Source of the DNA: a virus
Taxonomy: Duplodnaviria; Caudoviricetes
IMG/VR virus record: IMGVR_UViG_3300006872_000014
Location: 1-40,761 of that record
Length of the DNA stretch: 40,761 nt
Reading direction: 5' to 3' (one strand)
Position numbers and translations under genes: made by a program
Shown: positions 12,901 through 21,787 of the stretch, piece by piece
Position numbering within the stretch: the first letter of the stretch is position 1
How the letters are laid out: the number at the start of each line of letters is the position of its first letter
Notes under the pieces: generated by a model
Databases searched by the model: none
What the model saw: the letters and a program-made list of their open reading frames with translations, nothing else
Told to the model about the DNA's origin: nothing

Positions 12901-13161
12901 CTACCTAACATCCCTCGCCCATTTTGCCAGCAAGTAGTCGATGAACGCCTCATAGTCCTCGCCATCGTCCATAGGGCGGAGCGGGGCGGGTTTAGCGGGG
13001 GCCTTCGCTTTCAGGATCGCCAGTTCCGCCTGACAGAGCGCCAAGGGCGTATCCATTGGCGGCTTCGATCTTGATGCGCACCCGCTCGCGAGAAGCAAGG
13101 TCAGGAGCGCAACCGCCGACAGGGGCGCGATTGCGGCGGATGATCGTTTCGAGGGTCTCAT
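12901..13161 (-). CDS. o-spanin (Rz1-like lipoprotein)
   Basis: Signal peptide with lipobox LASGC and a Pro-rich mature part; overlaps the i-spanin in another frame. Confidence 0.75.
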   Translation of the reverse strand: MRPSKRSSAAIAPLSAVALLTLLLASGCASRSKPPMDTPLALCQAELAILKAKAPAKPAPLRPMDDGEDYEAFIDYLLAKWARDVR

Positions 13162-13384
13162 ATTCGGCCTTCCTCTGCGTTTCGGCCTCTCCGGCCTTCA
13201 GGATTGCGTCCACAGCGGCGGTGGCGTTGTCCCTGATCGCCTGAGCCGTTTCCTTGTCCTGCGCTTCCAGAGCCTTCGTAAGCGCCCTGGCGTTGCGGGC
13301 GTCCTCGTAAAAAATGCCGGCGAAGAACGCCAAAGCGATCGGTGCCGCGAATTTCGCCAGCCAGTTCCAGACTATTGCCAGCAC
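12992..13384 (-). CDS. i-spanin (Rz-like)
   Basis: N-terminal TM followed by a coiled coil and a Cys; overlapped by a lipoprotein gene. Confidence 0.75.
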   Translation of the reverse strand: MLAIVWNWLAKFAAPIALAFFAGIFYEDARNARALTKALEAQDKETAQAIRDNATAAVDAILKAGEAETQRKAEYETLETIIRRNRAPVGGCAPDLASRERVRIKIEAANGYALGALSGGTGDPESEGPR

Positions 13385-13410
13385 GGGGAAAGCCTCATAG
13401 GGTCAGACAA

Positions 13411-13614
13411 ATGCAGACGACAAAATCGCAATCGCCTCCCGAAAAATGGGTATCGGATGATCCTGGATTTTGGGGAACCACACGACAACTGACTGTTTGC
13501 GCAAAGTGTGGCCAATCTCCGGGCGGAAAAGACAAGCCTCGCCGCATCGCGAACATGTTCAAGTCTTCGATGCATTTTCTTTGCGACGCCTGTTACGATT
13601 CCTTGCCGGATTAA
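13411..13614 (+). CDS. Small zinc-finger protein antisense to the lysis cassette
   Basis: CAKC...CDACY; fills the otherwise empty 13385-13649 gap. Confidence 0.55.
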   Translation: MQTTKSQSPPEKWVSDDPGFWGTTRQLTVCAKCGQSPGGKDKPRRIANMFKSSMHFLCDACYDSLPD

Positions 13615-13649
13615 CGTCCGGCCCGCACTCGCCCTTCCCTTAAGCGGGG

Positions 13650-13844
13650 TCATGAGGGCTTCCGGCGAACATCGAATCCGACCGTCTCTGGAAGACGATA
13701 AAGCGGCTGTCCGTTCGCATCGTACAGGCCGGAAAACTTCGGCTCGCGAATGTCATCGACAAGGGGCTTTTCAGGTTCGTCCCCGAATCCGTCCCAAGCG
13801 TCATCGCCCCACCACAGCTTCGGCTTTGCTACATAGCGCGGCAT
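13650..13844 (-). CDS. Hypothetical protein
   Basis: SGLYDANGQPLYR...VGF motif; AGAGGAG RBS. Confidence 0.7.
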   Translation of the reverse strand: MPRYVAKPKLWWGDDAWDGFGDEPEKPLVDDIREPKFSGLYDANGQPLYRLPETVGFDVRRKPS

Positions 13845-13845
13845 A

Positions 13846-14052
13846 TCACGGCTCCTCTATCGGCCCTCTATAGACAAGATCGACGAAGGCGCGGGGCTCG
13901 CCTTCCATGAGCTTCCATTTCAGCTTGCCGCCGACCATGACGACCTTGGCGATCTCCGCTCCCTTGCCGGCGTTGATCCAATACCATCTATTCGGGAGGT
14001 AATCGATCGCGGCGCCAGAAACCGCTTGGCCGAGATCTTCCGCGAGCATCAT
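13846..14052 (-). CDS. Hypothetical protein
   Basis: WYWI...GPIEEP small-protein pattern; coupled start. Confidence 0.6.
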   Translation of the reverse strand: MMLAEDLGQAVSGAAIDYLPNRWYWINAGKGAEIAKVVMVGGKLKWKLMEGEPRAFVDLVYRGPIEEP

Positions 14053-14300
14053 CCCTGCCCGCCTCCCTTGAGCTTGGCGAGTTCGGCCTGTGCGTGAGCG
14101 AGGTCCTTCGTCAATTCGTTCTTTTCAGCGATCAGGACCGCGTTTTCAGCGATCAGCTTCGCCTTGTCGCCAAGCACGAGAAACCCGCTCTTGATGATGC
14201 GATAGAGGAAATACCCTGCGACCGTCGCGCCGAAGATGAACCCGGCGGCGAGTTCCTTCACTGTCTCAGGTTTGAGCCAGTCTTTTTGCCAGTCCTCCAT
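14049..14300 (-). CDS. Single-TM plus coiled-coil protein (holin/antiholin-like)
   Basis: ELAAGFIFGATVAGYFLY followed by a heptad-like tail; located in the lysis cassette. Confidence 0.6.
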   Translation of the reverse strand: MEDWQKDWLKPETVKELAAGFIFGATVAGYFLYRIIKSGFLVLGDKAKLIAENAVLIAEKNELTKDLAHAQAELAKLKGGGQG

Positions 14301-14816
14301 TCACGCCACCTCTGCCTTAGGAGGCGGAATGCGCGATCGGACAAGACCGCTCCAAGTCCAGCCCCGAAAACGAGCCATAAAAGCGTGATCCAGTCTCGCG
14401 CCCCATTCATGTCGGCCTGCCGCTGTTGCGATTAACACGGTGATGACCGACGCCGCGCGAAGGACGCCCAACGTCCAAAGGTAGAAAGCCTGATTAGTCT
14501 GGCCGGTCAGGAAATAGGCGAGATGGAGAACCAGCATCGCCGCGAAGAAGAGGACGCACAACGCAGCCCACGCCGCGCGCCTCCGCATCATGAGAACCCC
14601 GAAGATGATGATGACTCCGATGTCGATCGAAGCATAAGCCTCGACTGGAGAAATGTCATTGAACGAATTGCGGGCCGCCCATCCAGCCAGCCATTCGGCC
14701 AGAAGAACCTCCGCGCCGAGAGTGTGTTGGCGCCCGACCTTCGGCCTCGCGTCGATCAGCGTGTAAGCGAGGACGATCGCGGTCAGCCAGAAATGGCTAG
14801 CGGCCCAATTCATCAA
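14301..14816 (-). CDS. Multi-pass (about 5 TM) membrane protein of unknown function
   Basis: About five hydrophobic segments with polar residues in or next to them (IDA, AEW, SIDIG, LVLHLAY); ATGA-type coupling to the upstream small protein. Confidence 0.75.
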   Translation of the reverse strand: MMNWAASHFWLTAIVLAYTLIDARPKVGRQHTLGAEVLLAEWLAGWAARNSFNDISPVEAYASIDIGVIIIFGVLMMRRRAAWAALCVLFFAAMLVLHLAYFLTGQTNQAFYLWTLGVLRAASVITVLIATAAGRHEWGARLDHAFMARFRGWTWSGLVRSRIPPPKAEVA

Positions 14817-15070
14817 TCGTCGTCCTTCGGCCCGCCGCCCGAGTTCGGCGTGATGCCGACATCGCCGGATGCGACAAGCGCGGCGTCATGGAAGAGCTTC
14901 ATGCCGGCCTTGGCGACGGTTTGCCCTGAAACGAGTTTGTGAAAATGCGCCGTCGTCACCCCGCCTTCTGCGGATGCGGCATCGACAATCGCTTGCGCCG
15001 CCGCTTTATAGGCCGCTTCCGCCGCCAGCAGATCAGCCTGCAAGGCGTTCACCTGTTCCTGCGTAGCCAT
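14813..15070 (-). CDS. 85-aa helical protein with a C-terminal ITPNSGGGPKDDD tail
   Basis: AAGGAG RBS before ATG 15070; Ala-rich helices; polar Gly-rich tail. Confidence 0.75.
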   Translation of the reverse strand: MATQEQVNALQADLLAAEAAYKAAAQAIVDAASAEGGVTTAHFHKLVSGQTVAKAGMKLFHDAALVASGDVGITPNSGGGPKDDD

Positions 15071-15072
15071 GT

Positions 15073-15591
15073 TCACTCCTTCCCGTTTGAAACCATCCGG
15101 CCTGTGTCGGGCCAGTATTGAAGCGTCGTGCATTCCTTCGGATCAATCCGGCAATGCGTCTGCATGTTATAGAGGTTCCTCAAGTTGATCATCTCGCCCA
15201 TGCCTTCGAATTGCGTCTCGACTTCGATTTCCTTCGCCTTCGTTTCCCGAACGAAGCCTTCAAGTGAGGATTCCAGCGCGCCGATCCGCGCGCGGTTGTC
15301 GAGACTGTCCGCGCGCATTTCCGCCCGGATGGTCGAGCCCATGACAAGCTCCTGCTTCAAAGGTTCCACCGCAAGCGCAATCGATATTTGCACGGCCGAC
15401 CAGACGACGCCGCCGAAAACGACGAGTGCGGCCCCTGCCGAAAGCATCGCAGGCCATGAAAACTGCCTCGACCTCGTGAGCGCATCGACCGCACTCGTCA
15501 GCCCGTCCAGTTTCGATGCGACGAGGCGATATTCGCTACGCAGATCATTGATCTGGTCGTAAATATCCTTCTCTGTCGCGTCGCCGTTCAT
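15073..15591 (-). CDS. Single-TM coiled-coil protein (holin-like position)
   Basis: Coiled coil, then TM (WPAMLSAGAALVVFGGVVWSAV), then coiled coil with a CxxxxxxC. Confidence 0.65.
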   Translation of the reverse strand: MNGDATEKDIYDQINDLRSEYRLVASKLDGLTSAVDALTRSRQFSWPAMLSAGAALVVFGGVVWSAVQISIALAVEPLKQELVMGSTIRAEMRADSLDNRARIGALESSLEGFVRETKAKEIEVETQFEGMGEMINLRNLYNMQTHCRIDPKECTTLQYWPDTGRMVSNGKE

Positions 15592-15592
15592 G

Positions 15593-15709
15593 TCAGAACA
15601 ACAGTCCCCCGACGATCAGCCCGCCGACGAATGCGGCGGCAAGCTTCCAGTGCGTCAGCAGAAACCCGGCGACCGAGCCGAGCGCGTCTTGCAGTTTCAG
15701 CGGCATCAT
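15593..15709 (-). CDS. 38-aa membrane protein, possible holin
   Basis: Manual translation MMPLKLQDALGSVAGFLLTHWKLAAAFVGGLIVGGLLF; AGGAGG RBS; directly follows the endolysin. Confidence 0.6.
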   Translation of the reverse strand: MMPLKLQDALGSVAGFLLTHWKLAAAFVGGLIVGGLLF

Positions 15710-15719
15710 GGCCTCCTAG

Positions 15720-16121
15720 TCATTGTCCGTAGCCTTTCGGAAGTTGAAAGTGCGGGCCGTCCTTGAATGTTTTCCAGTCGCCGCCCCACTCTATCGGGAT
15801 TCCCAATTCCGCCGCAGCCTTTTTCATCGCCCGCGCAATGTCAGCATACAGCGAAAACGGCGTCCATTGAAGCGTTCCGTTGACGTAGGCCGCGACATCG
15901 AAAGCGTGAGCGTAGCCGTCATGCTGGAGAAGGTGTCGGGAATTCATGGTCTTAGACGCGCCGGACTTAACGAATTCCTTCTGCTGTTCGATCGTCCTGA
16001 CCCCGGCGGTTACGCCGAAATCCACTTCGGTCAGTTCAATCGCCCGCTTGGCGACTTTAACGAGGTCCGGGTGAACGCCGTTCAGTTTGTCGAGAGAGCG
16101 CTGAGAAAGGGAGAAGGCCAT
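15720..16121 (-). CDS. Endolysin, M15 family L-Ala-D-Glu peptidase
   Basis: LSQRSLDKLNGVHPDL, GVRTIEQQ, SRHL, HAFD and WGGDWKTFKDGPHFQL. Confidence 0.92.
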   Translation of the reverse strand: MAFSLSQRSLDKLNGVHPDLVKVAKRAIELTEVDFGVTAGVRTIEQQKEFVKSGASKTMNSRHLLQHDGYAHAFDVAAYVNGTLQWTPFSLYADIARAMKKAAAELGIPIEWGGDWKTFKDGPHFQLPKGYGQ

Positions 16122-19100
16122 CACCACGCCTGCCCTGCATCATAGGTTGCAAAGGTCGAAAGACCGCCGATCATCGTTTGCCATGCGACATGGAAGGCTT
16201 GCGTCGTCGTCGCCGACCGGCGCCAGTATTCGCATAGGCGTCCGTCGAAGTTGCGCGTATGGAGCGGCACATTCGGCGGATTGCCGTTGTGGTTGCCCAT
16301 CGAAAGCGGCGTCGTTCCAGCGACGAATGTTCCTACCGGAGCCGTCGCGACAGTCACCGCCGCGTTGGCCCCGTTAAGCGTGAATATCGGATCAGCCGTC
16401 GAGCCGTCATGGCTGTAGCAGAATCCGGCCCATGTGTTGAGGGTCGCGTAGGTGGTGTACCATTTGCCGTCAGTTGTCGAAAACTCGCGCTCAAGAACGA
16501 TCGCTCCGATATTGTCCTGAATGTATAGATCGTCTCCGTCGCGCATGTGGAAGAGGCGGGCGAACCCGGTGTCGGCGACCCCGACGCCGCCGCCGCCCTT
16601 CGCCGAGCGATTGAAGAATATCCCGCACGAGAGCGCCGCATTGTTCGTCGTCAGCACGCTGTCGCTAGCGTCCCCGGCGTTGACGCCTTGGCTGTCATAG
16701 CCTCTCGCTGAGAGCCTGTTCGGCCCTCCGCCCGCGATAAGCTGCGTCCCGAATTGCTGGAAGATTTCCCCATTCGCATGGTTCGCTGTCATTTCGACCG
16801 TGTAGAGATCGAAATCCTGATAGACTTCTTGGCTTCCATACTGCGCGCTCGCCGCAGGCTGGGTGAGCGTGCCGTCGCCGCCGGTCCTCAATTTCACCAC
16901 GGCCCCGACGCTCATCGCGTTCGGCGTCCTAGTGCGCAATCTTCCGGTGCCAGCCGTCTTGTTGAAGTTCATGATGTGCAGCGGCAGCCGCGTCGTTTTG
17001 TCCGCGAGATAGGCTTTGATGTCGCCGCCGTTCGATTGCGCCTTCTGGAAGAATTGATGCGCCGCACCGCCGGGAAGGAGGCTTAGATCAATGTCCCACA
17101 CAAATCCGGCTTCAAGCCCGGCCGCATAAGCGAGCGTCGCCGTCGTCTCCCATTCCGTCTGCGGCGTCGGCGGGGCGACCCCGGTCAGATTCTCGACATG
17201 ACGCCAGAACACATTACCCCTGAGTTCGATGGCGTCGATATGCGGCGAGGCCCCGCCGGTGATATGCTGCGCGGTGTTTCCGCTAACCGTTCCGTAGACG
17301 AAGTTATCGGAGGTGCGCTTGATCTCGATGACGCCGCCAGACGCAGCGGCGTAATAGGTGATGGTGAGGTCATGCGCATTGCCGTCGAGAAGATCGAGGC
17401 CCGTCGTCGTCACCGCGTCCGGCGCGGCTTGGCCGAGATAGGTGAGGGTCAAAGCTCCTGACGCGCCTGGCTTCATCGCGACGAAATCGCCATTCGAGGT
17501 CATGTTGAGGCGGCCGTATTCCGCCGTCCTCGTTCCGTCAGGATGAATTATGAGCCTAACGGCCCTTGTAGCGTTCGCCTGTAACGAAGAGCCGAGTGAG
17601 AATAGGCCAATCTCGAATTCATTGGCGCTGTATAGCGCCCTGTCTCCAGCATCATCGACGACGGTGAAGCCGTTCGCCAAGACAGCTCCGGCAAGGATGA
17701 GGCTCACGCGGGTTTCTCCTTCGAAATCTTCAACGAGGTTTGTCGGAGGCGTGATCGAACCCGCGCCCTGACGCGAATTGTCATAGATCGCCTTCGCCGC
17801 GCCGGCGGTCGGAATGGTTCCGATCGAAGTGACGGGAAGTTCGAACCACGGAGCCCCCGCCGTCGCGAGATTGTCGTCGCGGACGTATTTGTAATAGTTC
17901 GAAATGATCTTGCCGGGGTAAAGCGCCGTGAATTCCTGAATGAAGCGGTTGATGACCGCCTCGCCGTAAGAGCCGTCGCGGAAGCGGTTCCGATAGCCGA
18001 TGAGGCCCGGAATGTTCGCCGTGTCGGTTCCGCTCACGTCCTCATGGAACCAGCCCTCATAGTTCCCAAGATACTCCATGCCCGCCGCGTCGCAGGCGTT
18101 CTTGTGGCGCGTGATCGAGCCCAATTGTCCGAATACGGATGATGCGCCCGAGGCTGCGTTCACATACCAGTTGAAAATAATCTGATCCAGATTATCCTCA
18201 GATACGGCCACAGCGGCGTTGAACGCCGCGTAAAATTCGGAGGAAGTCTGCGCGCCGAACGGGTTGCCGTTTCCTGGAGAACGGCTCGTCCATTTGAACC
18301 CTTCGGAGAGGTAGTTCGTCGTCATGATCCCGAGGCGGCCGATCGGGAGCGAGGCCGAGGGGAATTCAGCCGAGAAGACGTTCCAGCCGTCAGCCCATTG
18401 CTGGGTGTTGGGGGCGGAAACATTCGTCTGCGCGCCGATCAGGAATTTCCATTGCTGGTTCGGCTTCATCTCGGCGATGACGCGGGCGATCTCGGTCGCC
18501 GCGAGATTTCCGAAATACGCCGCCCCGCCGAACGCCGTGTTGGCGCCGTATTGCGGAAGGCCGGTTCTCGACTTCAGATGATCCGTCACCGCCTTGGCGA
18601 AGGCGTTTGAGAGAGGGAAGTTTCCATAGCCCCAAATCTCGTTTCCGAAGCCGAGGAAGAAGATCGTGCTGTCCGGGTATCCGGCGTCGATGAGATCCTG
18701 GACGCGAGCCTGCGCCCATGCCCGCCATTCGGTTTTGGCCGAGGCGACGATCGAGGAGAAATTCGCCGAAACGACGGCGGCGTAGGCGTTGTAGAGCGCG
18801 ACTTCGGAGGCGCTGCCGAATGGATTTGCGCCAGCCGCAGCCGTATAGAAGCCGTTCGGATCGCTCGCGGTGACGCCCATGCCGAAGGTTATGGGAACCT
18901 CGAAATGGAGCGCCGCGCCTTTCTCGGCGCATTTCTTCGCCCACATGTAGATGTTGGTCCCCTGCCTAAGCAGGTTCGAATTCGCAACATTTGGATTGCC
19001 GCTCGCCACCCATGAACGGGCGTTGGCAGTCAGGAGGTAGTCGGTCTTCGAAACCATGTTCGAAGCGTAGGCCGCCTTCCCCGCCGGCGAGCAGTGATCC

Positions 19101-21787
19101 ATGATGCGGATCACTTTGTCCTGCGCGAGATCGGCGTCTCCTTCGGAAGTGAACGGTTCCGTCTCCCATGAAGCTTCGTCGGCCGCCCGGCCCGCCCACC
19201 AGCGGCGGACCCAGATGTTCGAGCCAGAGCTGTTGGTCAGGGTGAGCGGATTTTGCGACGTGTCCGCCGAAGTGAGCGTCCTTGCAAAGCGGCGGCGAGT
19301 GAAAGTGAACGCCGCCCCGCCATTGATGAGCGATGATTGTCCGCCCGAGACGCCGGTGACGGTCCCGCTTTCGGCCCATGAGCCGGTGAACGCGGAAGCG
19401 TCCGCCACATCTCCGGTCCTGACGTCGATCTGCATCGACCATGCGCCGGTCTGGAAATTGGCGAGAGCGGAAAGATTGTTCTGAGTGGTGCGCGGCTGCG
19501 TGATCGGCATCGATTCGCCAGGCGCGAGCATGAACCAGCCGGTTGTGGGGTCGCTCTCCCCATCAAGGACCTTCTGGATCGAACCTTTAAGGTTCGTCGT
19601 CCATATTTTGTTGGACCCTGCGGAAGCGGCTTCGAACCCGATGACGCGCGTCTTGTTCTTGAGAAGGACATGGAAACCGACGCTGATCGGGCTGTCAGCC
19701 TCGATCCCGCGCTGCATGATCGGCTTGCCGTCGAGCGTGTTGGGGATGAGGGTTCCAGGAGGCGGCGGATCAGCGGGATTTGCGAGCTGCGTATGCGTCC
19801 AGTTCTGGATGACGCCTACGTTGCCGGCGATGTCGCTGATGCTGAGAAGGAAGGACGCCGAGCCGACGAAGGAAGCGGCGGACTGGTCGAAATCGATGAG
19901 GCCGGTCGAGCCGATGGTGAAGGTCCCGGCTCCCGAAACGTTCTGCGTCGTGCCGAGATCGGCCCCGTTGATGTCGCGGAAGCGGACGGAGGAAAGATCG
20001 AGCGGATAGGTTCCCGCGATCCAGAAAGAAGCGGCGTTGAACGGGGTGAAATCGATCCCCTTCGTCGATTGCGTGGCGATGGAGCCTGAGCCAGCCGCTT
20101 GCGGCGCGACGACGGCGCGCCAGTCGATCGTTTTCGTGACGAGCGTCTGCGGCCCGCCTGCGGTCGCTTCGAGCGTGTAGGTGAGCGTTCCAGATGCCGA
20201 GGCGGGAGAGACCGGCGTCAACGTCACCTGCTTCCTGTCCGCCGAAATGACTGCAGAGCCTACGTCCAGATTGGCCGAGAGGGCGACGATAAAGTTGTTG
20301 TTCGCATCGTCGGAATTGGCGACCACATCGAGCGTGATCGACTTGTCCGCTGTGGCTGTGATGGTGGAAGGAAGGCCGTCCACAGGGGGATTGTGGATCG
20401 ACTTGAAAACCGGGCTGCCCTGCACTGGATTGCCTGCCAAAGTGCCGGAATAGGTCGCGGTCCCTTGCAGAATCTCATTATTGGCGAAGACGCCGGTAAG
20501 ATCGAAAACGCCCGAGCCAAGAGCGTTCTTCGTCACCTTGCCGGTAAGGGCGGCGGGAATGGTGATGTCCTCCGCCGCATCCGTGCCAAGCGCGGTTCGA
20601 ACGTCAACCCGTTGAACGGTGGTCGCGTTCTCAGGCCATGTCACCGTTTGCACGGGATCGATGATGACGACGGGCGAGGCCGGACGATCAAAGGTGAAGG
20701 CTTGCGTATCGACCGATCTGGCGAGGGCGCCGGTCTCGGTTGCGCGAAGGATGAAAGAGCGGGTGACGGCCCCGCCCTCTACAGGGTAGGCGATGTTGAC
20801 CCCATCCCATGAATAGCCTGCAGGCGGATTTGTGCCATCGGCGTTTTTGAGGGCGTAGGTGAGGCTTTCCGAATCCGAGAACACCGTCGACGCGGCGAGC
20901 GGGAAATTTCCGGTTTCAGCGATGGCGATCGAGATCGGCGTGACGGCGGAAAGGACGATCGGCAAGGGATTGGCGACCACATCCCACGGCGCGCTGACCT
21001 GAGCGGTCTTGCCGTTGGCGTCCGTCACCTTGTAGAGGCCGGTCTTGAGCCCGGAGCCGGTCGCTTGCGAAGTGAGCGAGGCGACGCCGTTTGAAATCCC
21101 TGAGAGCGTGAAATTCGTGAGCGCCGTTCCGTCAGAATTCAAAACCTGATAGGAAAGAGGCGCGGCCCCGCCGGAGAAGAAGACCTTCAAATCTTCCGTG
21201 AAGGCGGTCGGAACCCCCTCCGCGAAACTGCGCTGCGCCGGCTGCGCGACGGCGACCGGGCCTTGAACGACGGCTGGAATCTTCGTCCCCGTCGAATTGA
21301 TCGTGACTGGCGTCCATGAGATTTTGCGATGGGTCGCCAAGTCCATCACGGCTTCGGCTTCGAAGCTCGCCTGAATCGGGGTTCCCTGATCGTAATTCGC
21401 CCGCCACGCCGGATCGACTTTCAGCCGAAAATGCTCTCCACCCAAATGCGTGACTAGGGTTCCCGTCTGCGCTTTGGTGAAAGCTCCCGAGACGAACGTC
21501 GCGCGGCCTCCGGAGGACGGAAGGCGGACAAGATAGGCCCCCGCATTGTCAGGATCGGGCGTAACGACGGGCGGCAGCGCGGCGGGCGCGCCGACGAGCA
21601 GCGCGTCGATGCCGGCTGAATTATTATAGAGCCGGGTATAGCGGTCGTAATCCGCATTCGACAGCGACTTCGATGCATAAACCAGCGACGCCGCCTTGTC
21701 TGGATAAACCGGCGTCGCGCCTTTCGGCACGTCGATGATTTCGCGGATTTGATAGACCGGCGGCTGCTGCGTCGTGACGGGTGGCAT
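16121..21787 (-). CDS. 1888-aa multidomain protein: Ig/cadherin-like repeats, GH-like TIM barrel, DUF2341-like and LamG-like domains
   Basis: Beta-rich repeats (YKVTDANG, FSDSESLTY, LDVVANSDD). GH-like motifs IRIMD, GNEIWG and YEGWFH. FQKAQSNGGDI and FDGRLCE near the C-terminus. Confidence 0.7.
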   Translation of the reverse strand: MPPVTTQQPPVYQIREIIDVPKGATPVYPDKAASLVYASKSLSNADYDRYTRLYNNSAGIDALLVGAPAALPPVVTPDPDNAGAYLVRLPSSGGRATFVSGAFTKAQTGTLVTHLGGEHFRLKVDPAWRANYDQGTPIQASFEAEAVMDLATHRKISWTPVTINSTGTKIPAVVQGPVAVAQPAQRSFAEGVPTAFTEDLKVFFSGGAAPLSYQVLNSDGTALTNFTLSGISNGVASLTSQATGSGLKTGLYKVTDANGKTAQVSAPWDVVANPLPIVLSAVTPISIAIAETGNFPLAASTVFSDSESLTYALKNADGTNPPAGYSWDGVNIAYPVEGGAVTRSFILRATETGALARSVDTQAFTFDRPASPVVIIDPVQTVTWPENATTVQRVDVRTALGTDAAEDITIPAALTGKVTKNALGSGVFDLTGVFANNEILQGTATYSGTLAGNPVQGSPVFKSIHNPPVDGLPSTITATADKSITLDVVANSDDANNNFIVALSANLDVGSAVISADRKQVTLTPVSPASASGTLTYTLEATAGGPQTLVTKTIDWRAVVAPQAAGSGSIATQSTKGIDFTPFNAASFWIAGTYPLDLSSVRFRDINGADLGTTQNVSGAGTFTIGSTGLIDFDQSAASFVGSASFLLSISDIAGNVGVIQNWTHTQLANPADPPPPGTLIPNTLDGKPIMQRGIEADSPISVGFHVLLKNKTRVIGFEAASAGSNKIWTTNLKGSIQKVLDGESDPTTGWFMLAPGESMPITQPRTTQNNLSALANFQTGAWSMQIDVRTGDVADASAFTGSWAESGTVTGVSGGQSSLINGGAAFTFTRRRFARTLTSADTSQNPLTLTNSSGSNIWVRRWWAGRAADEASWETEPFTSEGDADLAQDKVIRIMDHCSPAGKAAYASNMVSKTDYLLTANARSWVASGNPNVANSNLLRQGTNIYMWAKKCAEKGAALHFEVPITFGMGVTASDPNGFYTAAAGANPFGSASEVALYNAYAAVVSANFSSIVASAKTEWRAWAQARVQDLIDAGYPDSTIFFLGFGNEIWGYGNFPLSNAFAKAVTDHLKSRTGLPQYGANTAFGGAAYFGNLAATEIARVIAEMKPNQQWKFLIGAQTNVSAPNTQQWADGWNVFSAEFPSASLPIGRLGIMTTNYLSEGFKWTSRSPGNGNPFGAQTSSEFYAAFNAAVAVSEDNLDQIIFNWYVNAASGASSVFGQLGSITRHKNACDAAGMEYLGNYEGWFHEDVSGTDTANIPGLIGYRNRFRDGSYGEAVINRFIQEFTALYPGKIISNYYKYVRDDNLATAGAPWFELPVTSIGTIPTAGAAKAIYDNSRQGAGSITPPTNLVEDFEGETRVSLILAGAVLANGFTVVDDAGDRALYSANEFEIGLFSLGSSLQANATRAVRLIIHPDGTRTAEYGRLNMTSNGDFVAMKPGASGALTLTYLGQAAPDAVTTTGLDLLDGNAHDLTITYYAAASGGVIEIKRTSDNFVYGTVSGNTAQHITGGASPHIDAIELRGNVFWRHVENLTGVAPPTPQTEWETTATLAYAAGLEAGFVWDIDLSLLPGGAAHQFFQKAQSNGGDIKAYLADKTTRLPLHIMNFNKTAGTGRLRTRTPNAMSVGAVVKLRTGGDGTLTQPAASAQYGSQEVYQDFDLYTVEMTANHANGEIFQQFGTQLIAGGGPNRLSARGYDSQGVNAGDASDSVLTTNNAALSCGIFFNRSAKGGGGVGVADTGFARLFHMRDGDDLYIQDNIGAIVLEREFSTTDGKWYTTYATLNTWAGFCYSHDGSTADPIFTLNGANAAVTVATAPVGTFVAGTTPLSMGNHNGNPPNVPLHTRNFDGRLCEYWRRSATTTQAFHVAWQTMIGGLSTFATYDAGQAW

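Follow-up and report, generated by a model that had tools for sequence, protein, structure and literature searches.

Why should a phage place, between its endolysin and its spanin-like genes, two small genes whose relatives stand beside a regulator gene on bacterial plasmids and chromosomes? The question is raised by a 40.8-kb viral record (40,761 nucleotides; IMG/VR record IMGVR_UViG_3300006872_000014; 64% complete), the whole of which is called the window here. On its minus strand, a gene for an 85-amino-acid (aa) helical protein, S (15070..14813), runs into one for a five-transmembrane protein, M, of 170 aa from its ATG (14813..14301) or 171 aa from an upstream TTG. The original prediction, made from the nucleotide letters alone, suggested that the two may be a precursor and its membrane partner, which might set lysis timing or signal between infected cells. 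Comparison with relatives reveals that S and M belong to a cellular module, R-S-M, in which R encodes a regulator with a membrane anchor. The tentative reading favoured here, to which we give somewhat less than an even chance, is that the phage pair is the captured core of this module: S would be a propeptide, M its processing or export and sensing partner, and the signal would be released late, M being something other than a holin.

A gene pair with relatives in cells and phages

The two genes are coupled: an AAGGAG ribosome-binding site (15076..15081) precedes the S ATG by 5 nucleotides (nt), the S stop and the M start overlap by 1 nt (TGATG, 14812..14815), and a further ATG comes immediately after the M stop. 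Together with the models described below, a hairpin for S and five long helices for M, this overlap upholds the predicted coupling of an 85-aa helical protein to a partner with about five transmembrane segments. How far does the family reach? A profile of plasmid-type M (eight plasmid proteins and P0059) matches the window M at E 5.9e-7 (hhalign, 92%); it finds matches in 26 of 121 genomes from the order of a Caulobacter genome, where the distribution of hits suggests mostly one family, in 22 of 121 from the order of a Sphingopyxis genome, and in five of 301 across the class, two of these being marginal. The original claim that similar pairs recur in Caulobacterales and Sphingomonadales is borne out. 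Chromosomes of Caulobacter- and Sphingomonas-type bacteria carry the module, as do plasmids and prophage-like contigs; a genome may have up to five copies of M, and paralogues within one genome carry different S tails.

What stands next to M? After removal of six duplicate loci and of L175, 93 M genes made up the set; these loci were picked for their M, and they lack phylogenetic independence. S lies directly upstream in 79, as the expected co-occurrence of the pair demands; four are the second M of a tandem, six follow R without S, three (L178, L200 and L201, kept in the set and left out of the conservation alignment) are marginal hits that are probably false, and one is unexplained. In plasmid loci, R combines a LuxR-type helix-turn-helix (HTH) with a low-complexity linker and a single transmembrane segment near the C-terminus, followed by almost no periplasmic part; with almost nothing outside the membrane, R would have to receive its input through its own transmembrane helix or from a partner. 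R is directly upstream in 53 of the 72 cellular S+M loci, and R+M occurs without S in six loci; because S+M pairs exist without R and R+M pairs without S, M is tied genetically to both. This third gene went beyond the original prediction and strengthens the signalling reading.

The genes that follow the module are varied. A winged-helix gene lies 3' of M in 23/93 loci, and on some plasmids R-S-M is found upstream of trbC/virB3/trbE or repC (L014:1575-5333; L012 and L015:1601-5360). On rhizobial plasmids, acyl-homoserine-lactone systems sit at the corresponding transfer and replication positions. On two further plasmids (L005:2100-5016 and L016:1542-5273), R-S-M is immediately 5' of a GntR gene and a lasso-peptide gene cluster, and it is possible that the module regulates lasso production there. 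The Novosphingobium plasmids L011 and L013 have R-M without S, then a YecA-family gene and a resolvase. Tandem S-S-M or S-S-M-M arrangements occur in nine loci; S1-S2-M(-M) clusters were noted at L252-L255, L140, L152, L160, L162, L163, L166, L167 and L173, in which S1, the upstream paralogue, carries a long tail ending in Cys, the ninth tandem locus, L158, being the exception.

One cellular copy has expression data. C. crescentus CC_0781/CCNA_00822, which shares a 90% cluster with an S protein, rises 13.2-fold in stationary phase and also goes up under carbon limitation, and its level is 10-fold lower in a cspC mutant (Table 3 of PMC4551563); these data establish transcription of the host copy rather than any function.

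Searches with the window M give 12 homologues (44-71% identity) and, at E<=0.001, 41 representatives; for the window S there are three homologues. In two loci of the window's clade, L001 and L003, S and M are followed by an 89-90 aa transmembrane/coil gene and then by genes that look spanin-like from their sequence, and the 83-aa gene of the window resembles this third gene. All three clade loci (the window, L001 and L003) hold the pair in the lysis region, between tail/endolysin and spanin-like genes. In annotated phages, the pair is CcrBL9 gp274c/gp273c, C2 gp268c/gp267c, phiCbK gp288/gp289 and RW gp079c/gp078c, and the phiCbK, CcrBL9 and RW proteins, like C. crescentus CC_0781, are all annotated as hypothetical. 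In RW, S+M lies within a late operon, 5' of a 64-aa coil/transmembrane gene; in phiCbK, CcrBL9 and C2 it lies outside the lysis genes, and the phiCbK lysis cassette, gp104-107 (PMC3556154), is distant from gp288/gp289. Such placement in phiCbK- and CcrBL9-type phages means that lysis placement is not general. A lysis-specific role finds no support as a general rule: in these phages, and in nearly all cellular copies, the genes are outside lysis cassettes.

Is R ever carried by viruses? It is directly upstream in none of the seven phage S+M loci, and the window has no R upstream of S+M (its best R-profile match, E 0.04, lies far away in a record that is 64% complete). A pattern search of viral contigs gave 45 matches, five of which are M; all five have S, four have R, and three of the five directly follow an XRE repressor-like gene. 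In L209:1460-3725, L212 and L227, the order is an XRE repressor-like gene, R-S-M and a winged-helix gene, placing the full module in an immunity-like region. Further scans of viral contigs gave no new loci.

The two proteins and their conserved residues

AlphaFold2 models M as five long helices and a C-terminal helix (predicted local distance difference test, pLDDT, 92.6). Across 142 M sequences, the three most conserved columns are D64 (14624-14622, minus strand, as for all residues given here; 92%), W82 (14570-14568; 93%) and H97 (14525-14523; 85%), with Y111 (14483-14481; 78%) also among the most conserved and Q/H at position 90 in 79%, where the window M has F. D64 lies in transmembrane helix 3, W82 in loop 3, H97 in helix 4 and Y111 in helix 5. 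The expectation that Asp and His would be conserved is confirmed; of the polar residues in or near the helices that had been singled out, D, W, H and Y are family-wide, and E35 is kept only in the local clade (16% overall). Counts of positive-inside charges predict an N-out/C-in topology.

S is predicted to fold as a cytoplasmic helical hairpin (residues 4-33 and 40-71), followed by a disordered tail (residues 72-85, GITPNSGGGPKDDD; 14816..14857), so that the protein ends H61-x(10)-GITPNSGGGPKDDD; it has no hydrophobic segment (maximum computed hydropathy 0.98). Among 68 S compared, E18 (15019-15017) is kept in 65 and H61 (14890-14888) in 64. Beyond H61, mostly at 16-24 residues, comes a tail element, K-P in 31, K in 18 and C-P in 15, which makes 64 of the 68; in the window it is K82 (14827-14825). 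As a background, K-P or C-P appears in eight of 3222 hairpin windows. The tail Lys/Cys is kept, as the original idea requires, and the exact SGGxxK sequence is a phage type: it is present in 7/10 phage S, all ten of which have the tail Lys (motifs in other phages include RSGGNDKP, RTGGEDKP and SVGGDKP), and cellular S have G..K-P or C-P in its place. Does M follow the exchange of Lys and Cys? His at M position 60 is enriched with Cys-type tails (7/11), a count confounded by relatedness, and beyond it no clear partner residue in M separates the Lys-type from the Cys-type. An apparent resemblance between the SGG tail and GlyGly-CTERM or lasso leaders was rejected, since no transmembrane segment comes after the tail and the unit lacks biosynthetic enzymes.

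The phage and cellular forms of S also differ at the C-terminus. Phage S are about 30 aa shorter, and the window S ends in DDD, whereas cellular homologues mostly end in Ala or Val: 25 of 70 end in AA (one of 70 for their M) and 51 of 70 in A or V, against none of ten phage S, taken from R-less pair loci or from the window S clade (Fisher p 1.2e-5, relatedness uncorrected). Of the full prophage-type modules examined, three have an S that keeps an AA or VA end. In Caulobacter CdnL, a C-terminal AA is a ClpXP degron and an AA-to-DD change blocks degradation (PMC11034885); by analogy, S may be a ClpXP substrate via its terminal Ala-Ala.

Neither protein belongs to a named family. Searches of 48 M in Pfam and PHROGs, 111 M in NCBIfam and 68 S in Pfam and NCBIfam gave no family for either, nor does any PHROG family cover S; an EccD match in 4/111 M (NCBIfam) was taken as a hydrophobic chance match. 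Neither AgrB nor AgrD turned up in Pfam (48 M) or NCBIfam (111 M), with the 68 S run against each, and there was no holin family match for 48 M in Pfam and PHROGs or 111 M in NCBIfam, a weak negative given how diverse holins are, which agrees with the view that neither protein is a classical holin. With Foldseek, the M model had nothing at E<=0.001 in the PDB; VIA-align placed it best with de novo helical bundles, a common arrangement (Z 10.6, root-mean-square deviation 3.6, 132 aligned), and a weak likeness to 7TM sensor and rhodopsin-type bundles (TM-score 0.54-0.57) is below the bar for naming. Against viral models, S met only generic hairpins, and M met phiCbK K4JPZ4 (TM-score 0.64) and a CcrBL9 protein. 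Unnamed viral proteins of 140-180 aa (A0A1W5PTQ8, A0A5J6U3C6, A0A088C309, A0A2I7QVX0, H9C0H3 and others) match the M model at TM-scores of about 0.5-0.6; these BFVD matches between predicted models hint at a wider phage family. The Atlas has unnamed clusters only (one auto-named ‘diguanylate cyclase’, with no Pfam family; features 0.93 for M and 0.82 for S), and NCBI and UniRef give the name hypothetical to the proteins that were checked. No description of the module or its locus tags was found in the literature, a search whose reach excluded subscription-only papers and supplements; one preprint on an integrative and conjugative element merely names a LuxR-like gene. Within the reachable literature, the suspicion that no system of this type had been described holds, with no family, solved fold or paper covering the module; the newness of R-S-M rests on its components and gene architecture, and the signalling mechanism is a proposal.

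Signal, modulator, antitoxin or enzyme?

How would such a module signal? M would grip the S hairpin on its E18/H61 face and act on the Gly-rich K/C-P tail, in which the exchange of Lys and Cys suggests a nucleophile for ring closure or acylation. M and R would jointly sense the product within the membrane, and R would switch transfer, replication, lasso-peptide or prophage targets at high density or in stationary phase. A phage S without the degron would be stable and build up once the late operon is expressed, and it would act on the R circuits of the host, of resident prophages or of neighbouring cells. The capture reading is built on S+M coupling, homology to the cellular module, the conserved residues, gene R, the lack of an R match beside the window pair and the missing Ala/Val end of phage S. 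In its favour, too, are the S-M and R-M associations, the tandem copies, the gene contexts, the differing tails of paralogues, the tail K-P, K or C-P, the stationary-phase rise of CC_0781 and, in phiCbK, a lysis cassette apart from the pair. A wider claim is possible, if doubtful: that R-S-M represents peptide-based cell-to-cell signalling in Gram-negative alphaproteobacteria, by families unrelated to agr or RRNPP, through which chromosomes, plasmids and prophages time transfer, lasso-peptide production and lysis-lysogeny, and that phages such as this one and phiCbK carry a sender freed of degron and regulator for broadcasting or spoofing at lysis.

Several observations weigh against a captured signal. 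Processing or export of a peptide by M is proposed from sequence, and no product, cleavage or activity has been observed. Among the 142 M, Cys (best column 24%), Ser (44%) and a second acidic residue are nowhere comparably conserved, so M shows no familiar protease chemistry. The predicted place of D64, H97 and Y111 is the half of the membrane nearer the periplasm, and S has no signal peptide. The tail beyond the Lys ranges from zero residues (P0016 ends at K) to more than 20, so that not every member could form an AgrD-like ring downstream of the nucleophile. The link between the window S clade and cellular S is weak (hhalign 53%, E 1.3e-4), and the kinship of the window S would lean on motif and synteny besides. 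All eight chromosomal S+M loci that were extended have no R within 1.7-2.9 kb upstream, so R-less pairs are not phage-specific. Finally, induction of CC_0781 in stationary phase fits a stress or toxin-antitoxin role equally well.

What, then, if no peptide leaves the cell? M could be a five-transmembrane sensor with an outward D/H/Y pocket, R a tethered transcription factor and S a labile activator or inhibitor, with ClpXP controlling how much of it is present; a phage supplying M and a stabilised S would jam or lock a stationary-phase or stress circuit of the host. The predicted outer position of the conserved polar residues suits this arrangement, as do the six R+M loci that lack S, the weak resemblance that M bears to 7TM sensor and rhodopsin-type bundles, and the AA (25/70) and A/V (51/70) ends that cellular S have and phage S (0/10) lack, set beside the effect of the AA-to-DD change in CdnL (PMC11034885). 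However, an intracellular modulator leaves unexplained both the almost constant spacing of the Lys/Cys in a tail predicted to be disordered and the many chromosomal S+M loci without R, and a degron would also suit a spent propeptide; we regard this explanation as doubtful, though one to be reckoned with.

Two other explanations make M an effector in its own right. As a toxin-antitoxin or holin-antiholin pair, M would depolarise or perforate the inner membrane, a labile S would restrain it, R would be autoregulatory and the phage would set its lysis time through the pair. The order of the genes, with S upstream of and coupled to M, and the degron-like S end are as such a pair would have them; so are the several paralogues on plasmids and prophage-like contigs, the position of the 3/3 clade loci between tail/endolysin and spanin-like genes and the late operon of RW. 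But at least six R+M loci have an M with no S in cis, the pair stands apart from lysis genes in phiCbK, CcrBL9 and C2, three further open reading frames (ORFs) of the window are holin-like, and the Pfam/PHROGs (48 M) and NCBIfam (111 M) searches gave no holin family match; we hold the explanation to be unlikely. Very unlikely, in our estimate, is a membrane modification enzyme with S as its acceptor or carrier: M would pass an acyl or other group to the Lys/Cys in the S tail, or from S to some component of the envelope, and so alter the cell surface (e.g., for superinfection exclusion). Interchange of Lys and Cys at a conserved tail position and a His/Asp pair inside the M transmembrane bundle speak for it; yet M has no acyltransferase fold or family match, and a dedicated membrane-tethered regulator and diverse tails among paralogues suit signalling better.

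Why does the choice matter? The module sits in the model organism C. crescentus (CC_0781), in the classic phage phiCbK (gp288/289) and in many sphingomonads. If the peptide signal is real, peptide quorum sensing and phage communication would extend to Gram-negative hosts, with new chemistry, and silent lasso-peptide clusters would gain a candidate switch; even without a released peptide, this would be a new kind of membrane-tethered regulation tampered with by phages.

The lysis region of the window and known systems

The window carries terminase, portal, capsid, tail-fibre, Erf/exonuclease and primosomal genes, and from where the family occurs we infer an alphaproteobacterial host. Its late region, on the minus strand, runs from a 1888-aa tail-fibre-like ORF to the M15 peptidase endolysin (15720..16127; PF13539, phrog_465) and two hydrophobic ORFs: one of 38 aa with a strong ribosome-binding site, 3' of the endolysin (15593..15709), and one for a 172-aa single-transmembrane coiled-coil protein (15073..15591), both holin-like candidates. 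S, the putative propeptide or modulator (14813..15070), and M (14301..14813) come next, then an 83-aa ORF with a weakly hydrophobic segment and a coiled coil (14049..14300; phrog_3879, function unknown), a third holin-like candidate, two or three small ORFs and the spanin-like genes. The latter are candidates for an inner-membrane spanin (i-spanin, 13384-12992) and an outer-membrane spanin (o-spanin, 13161-12901), which overlap in a joint region of 12901..13384 and have PHROG matches to phrog_1152 (E 0.004) and phrog_456 (E 0.09). The pair accordingly lies where it had been placed, with the M15 endolysin on one side and spanin-like genes on the other. The small ORFs between the 83-aa gene and the spanins (13372-14052) are of 68, 64 and a doubtful 93 aa, and the 64-aa ORF matches phrog_23102 (function unknown). 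The 1888-aa ORF (16121-21787), tail-fibre or receptor-binding-like, is immediately 5' of the endolysin.

Which known systems come closest? A24 prepilin peptidases do not fit: they use two catalytic Asp residues on a substrate, Flp pilin, that has a hydrophobic helix; M has only one conserved Asp and S is not hydrophobic. In ToxR/ToxS, CadC/LysP and streptococcal HdrRM, a cytoplasmic DNA-binding domain on a single transmembrane segment needs a second membrane protein. In R, by contrast, the HTH is LuxR-type and the periplasmic domain is all but absent, and a third gene, for a soluble hairpin, belongs to the unit. The pair is neither AgrBD nor arbitrium, and it is not lysis-specific. With AgrD/AgrB, as described in PMC10482373, it shares a small protein with a helical leader beside a multi-pass membrane partner, a nucleophile segment with a charged or Pro-rich tail and allelic diversity of that tail. 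AgrB is a six-transmembrane cysteine protease with a Cys84-His77 dyad (PMC10482373); M, in contrast, has five transmembrane segments and no column above 24% Cys in 142 sequences, so no Cys-His dyad. Unlike AgrD, the S family spans 80-130 aa and usually has Lys in the tail; unlike AgrC/AgrA, R is a single-pass protein with a LuxR-type HTH, and the hosts are Gram-negative. RRNPP systems pair a Sec-exported propeptide with a cytosolic tetratricopeptide repeat (TPR) receptor of 250-500 aa, and their phage copies have been suggested to take over circuits of the host (PMC10075063). A hydrophobic signal segment of that kind is absent from S, and the neighbours of S in the window are membrane proteins of 170 and 172 aa with no Pfam match, rather than a TPR receptor. 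What the pair has in common with arbitrium and RRNPP is its genetic setting: adjacent genes, on phages, plasmids and chromosomes alike, beside the genes of lysis-lysogeny or conjugation.
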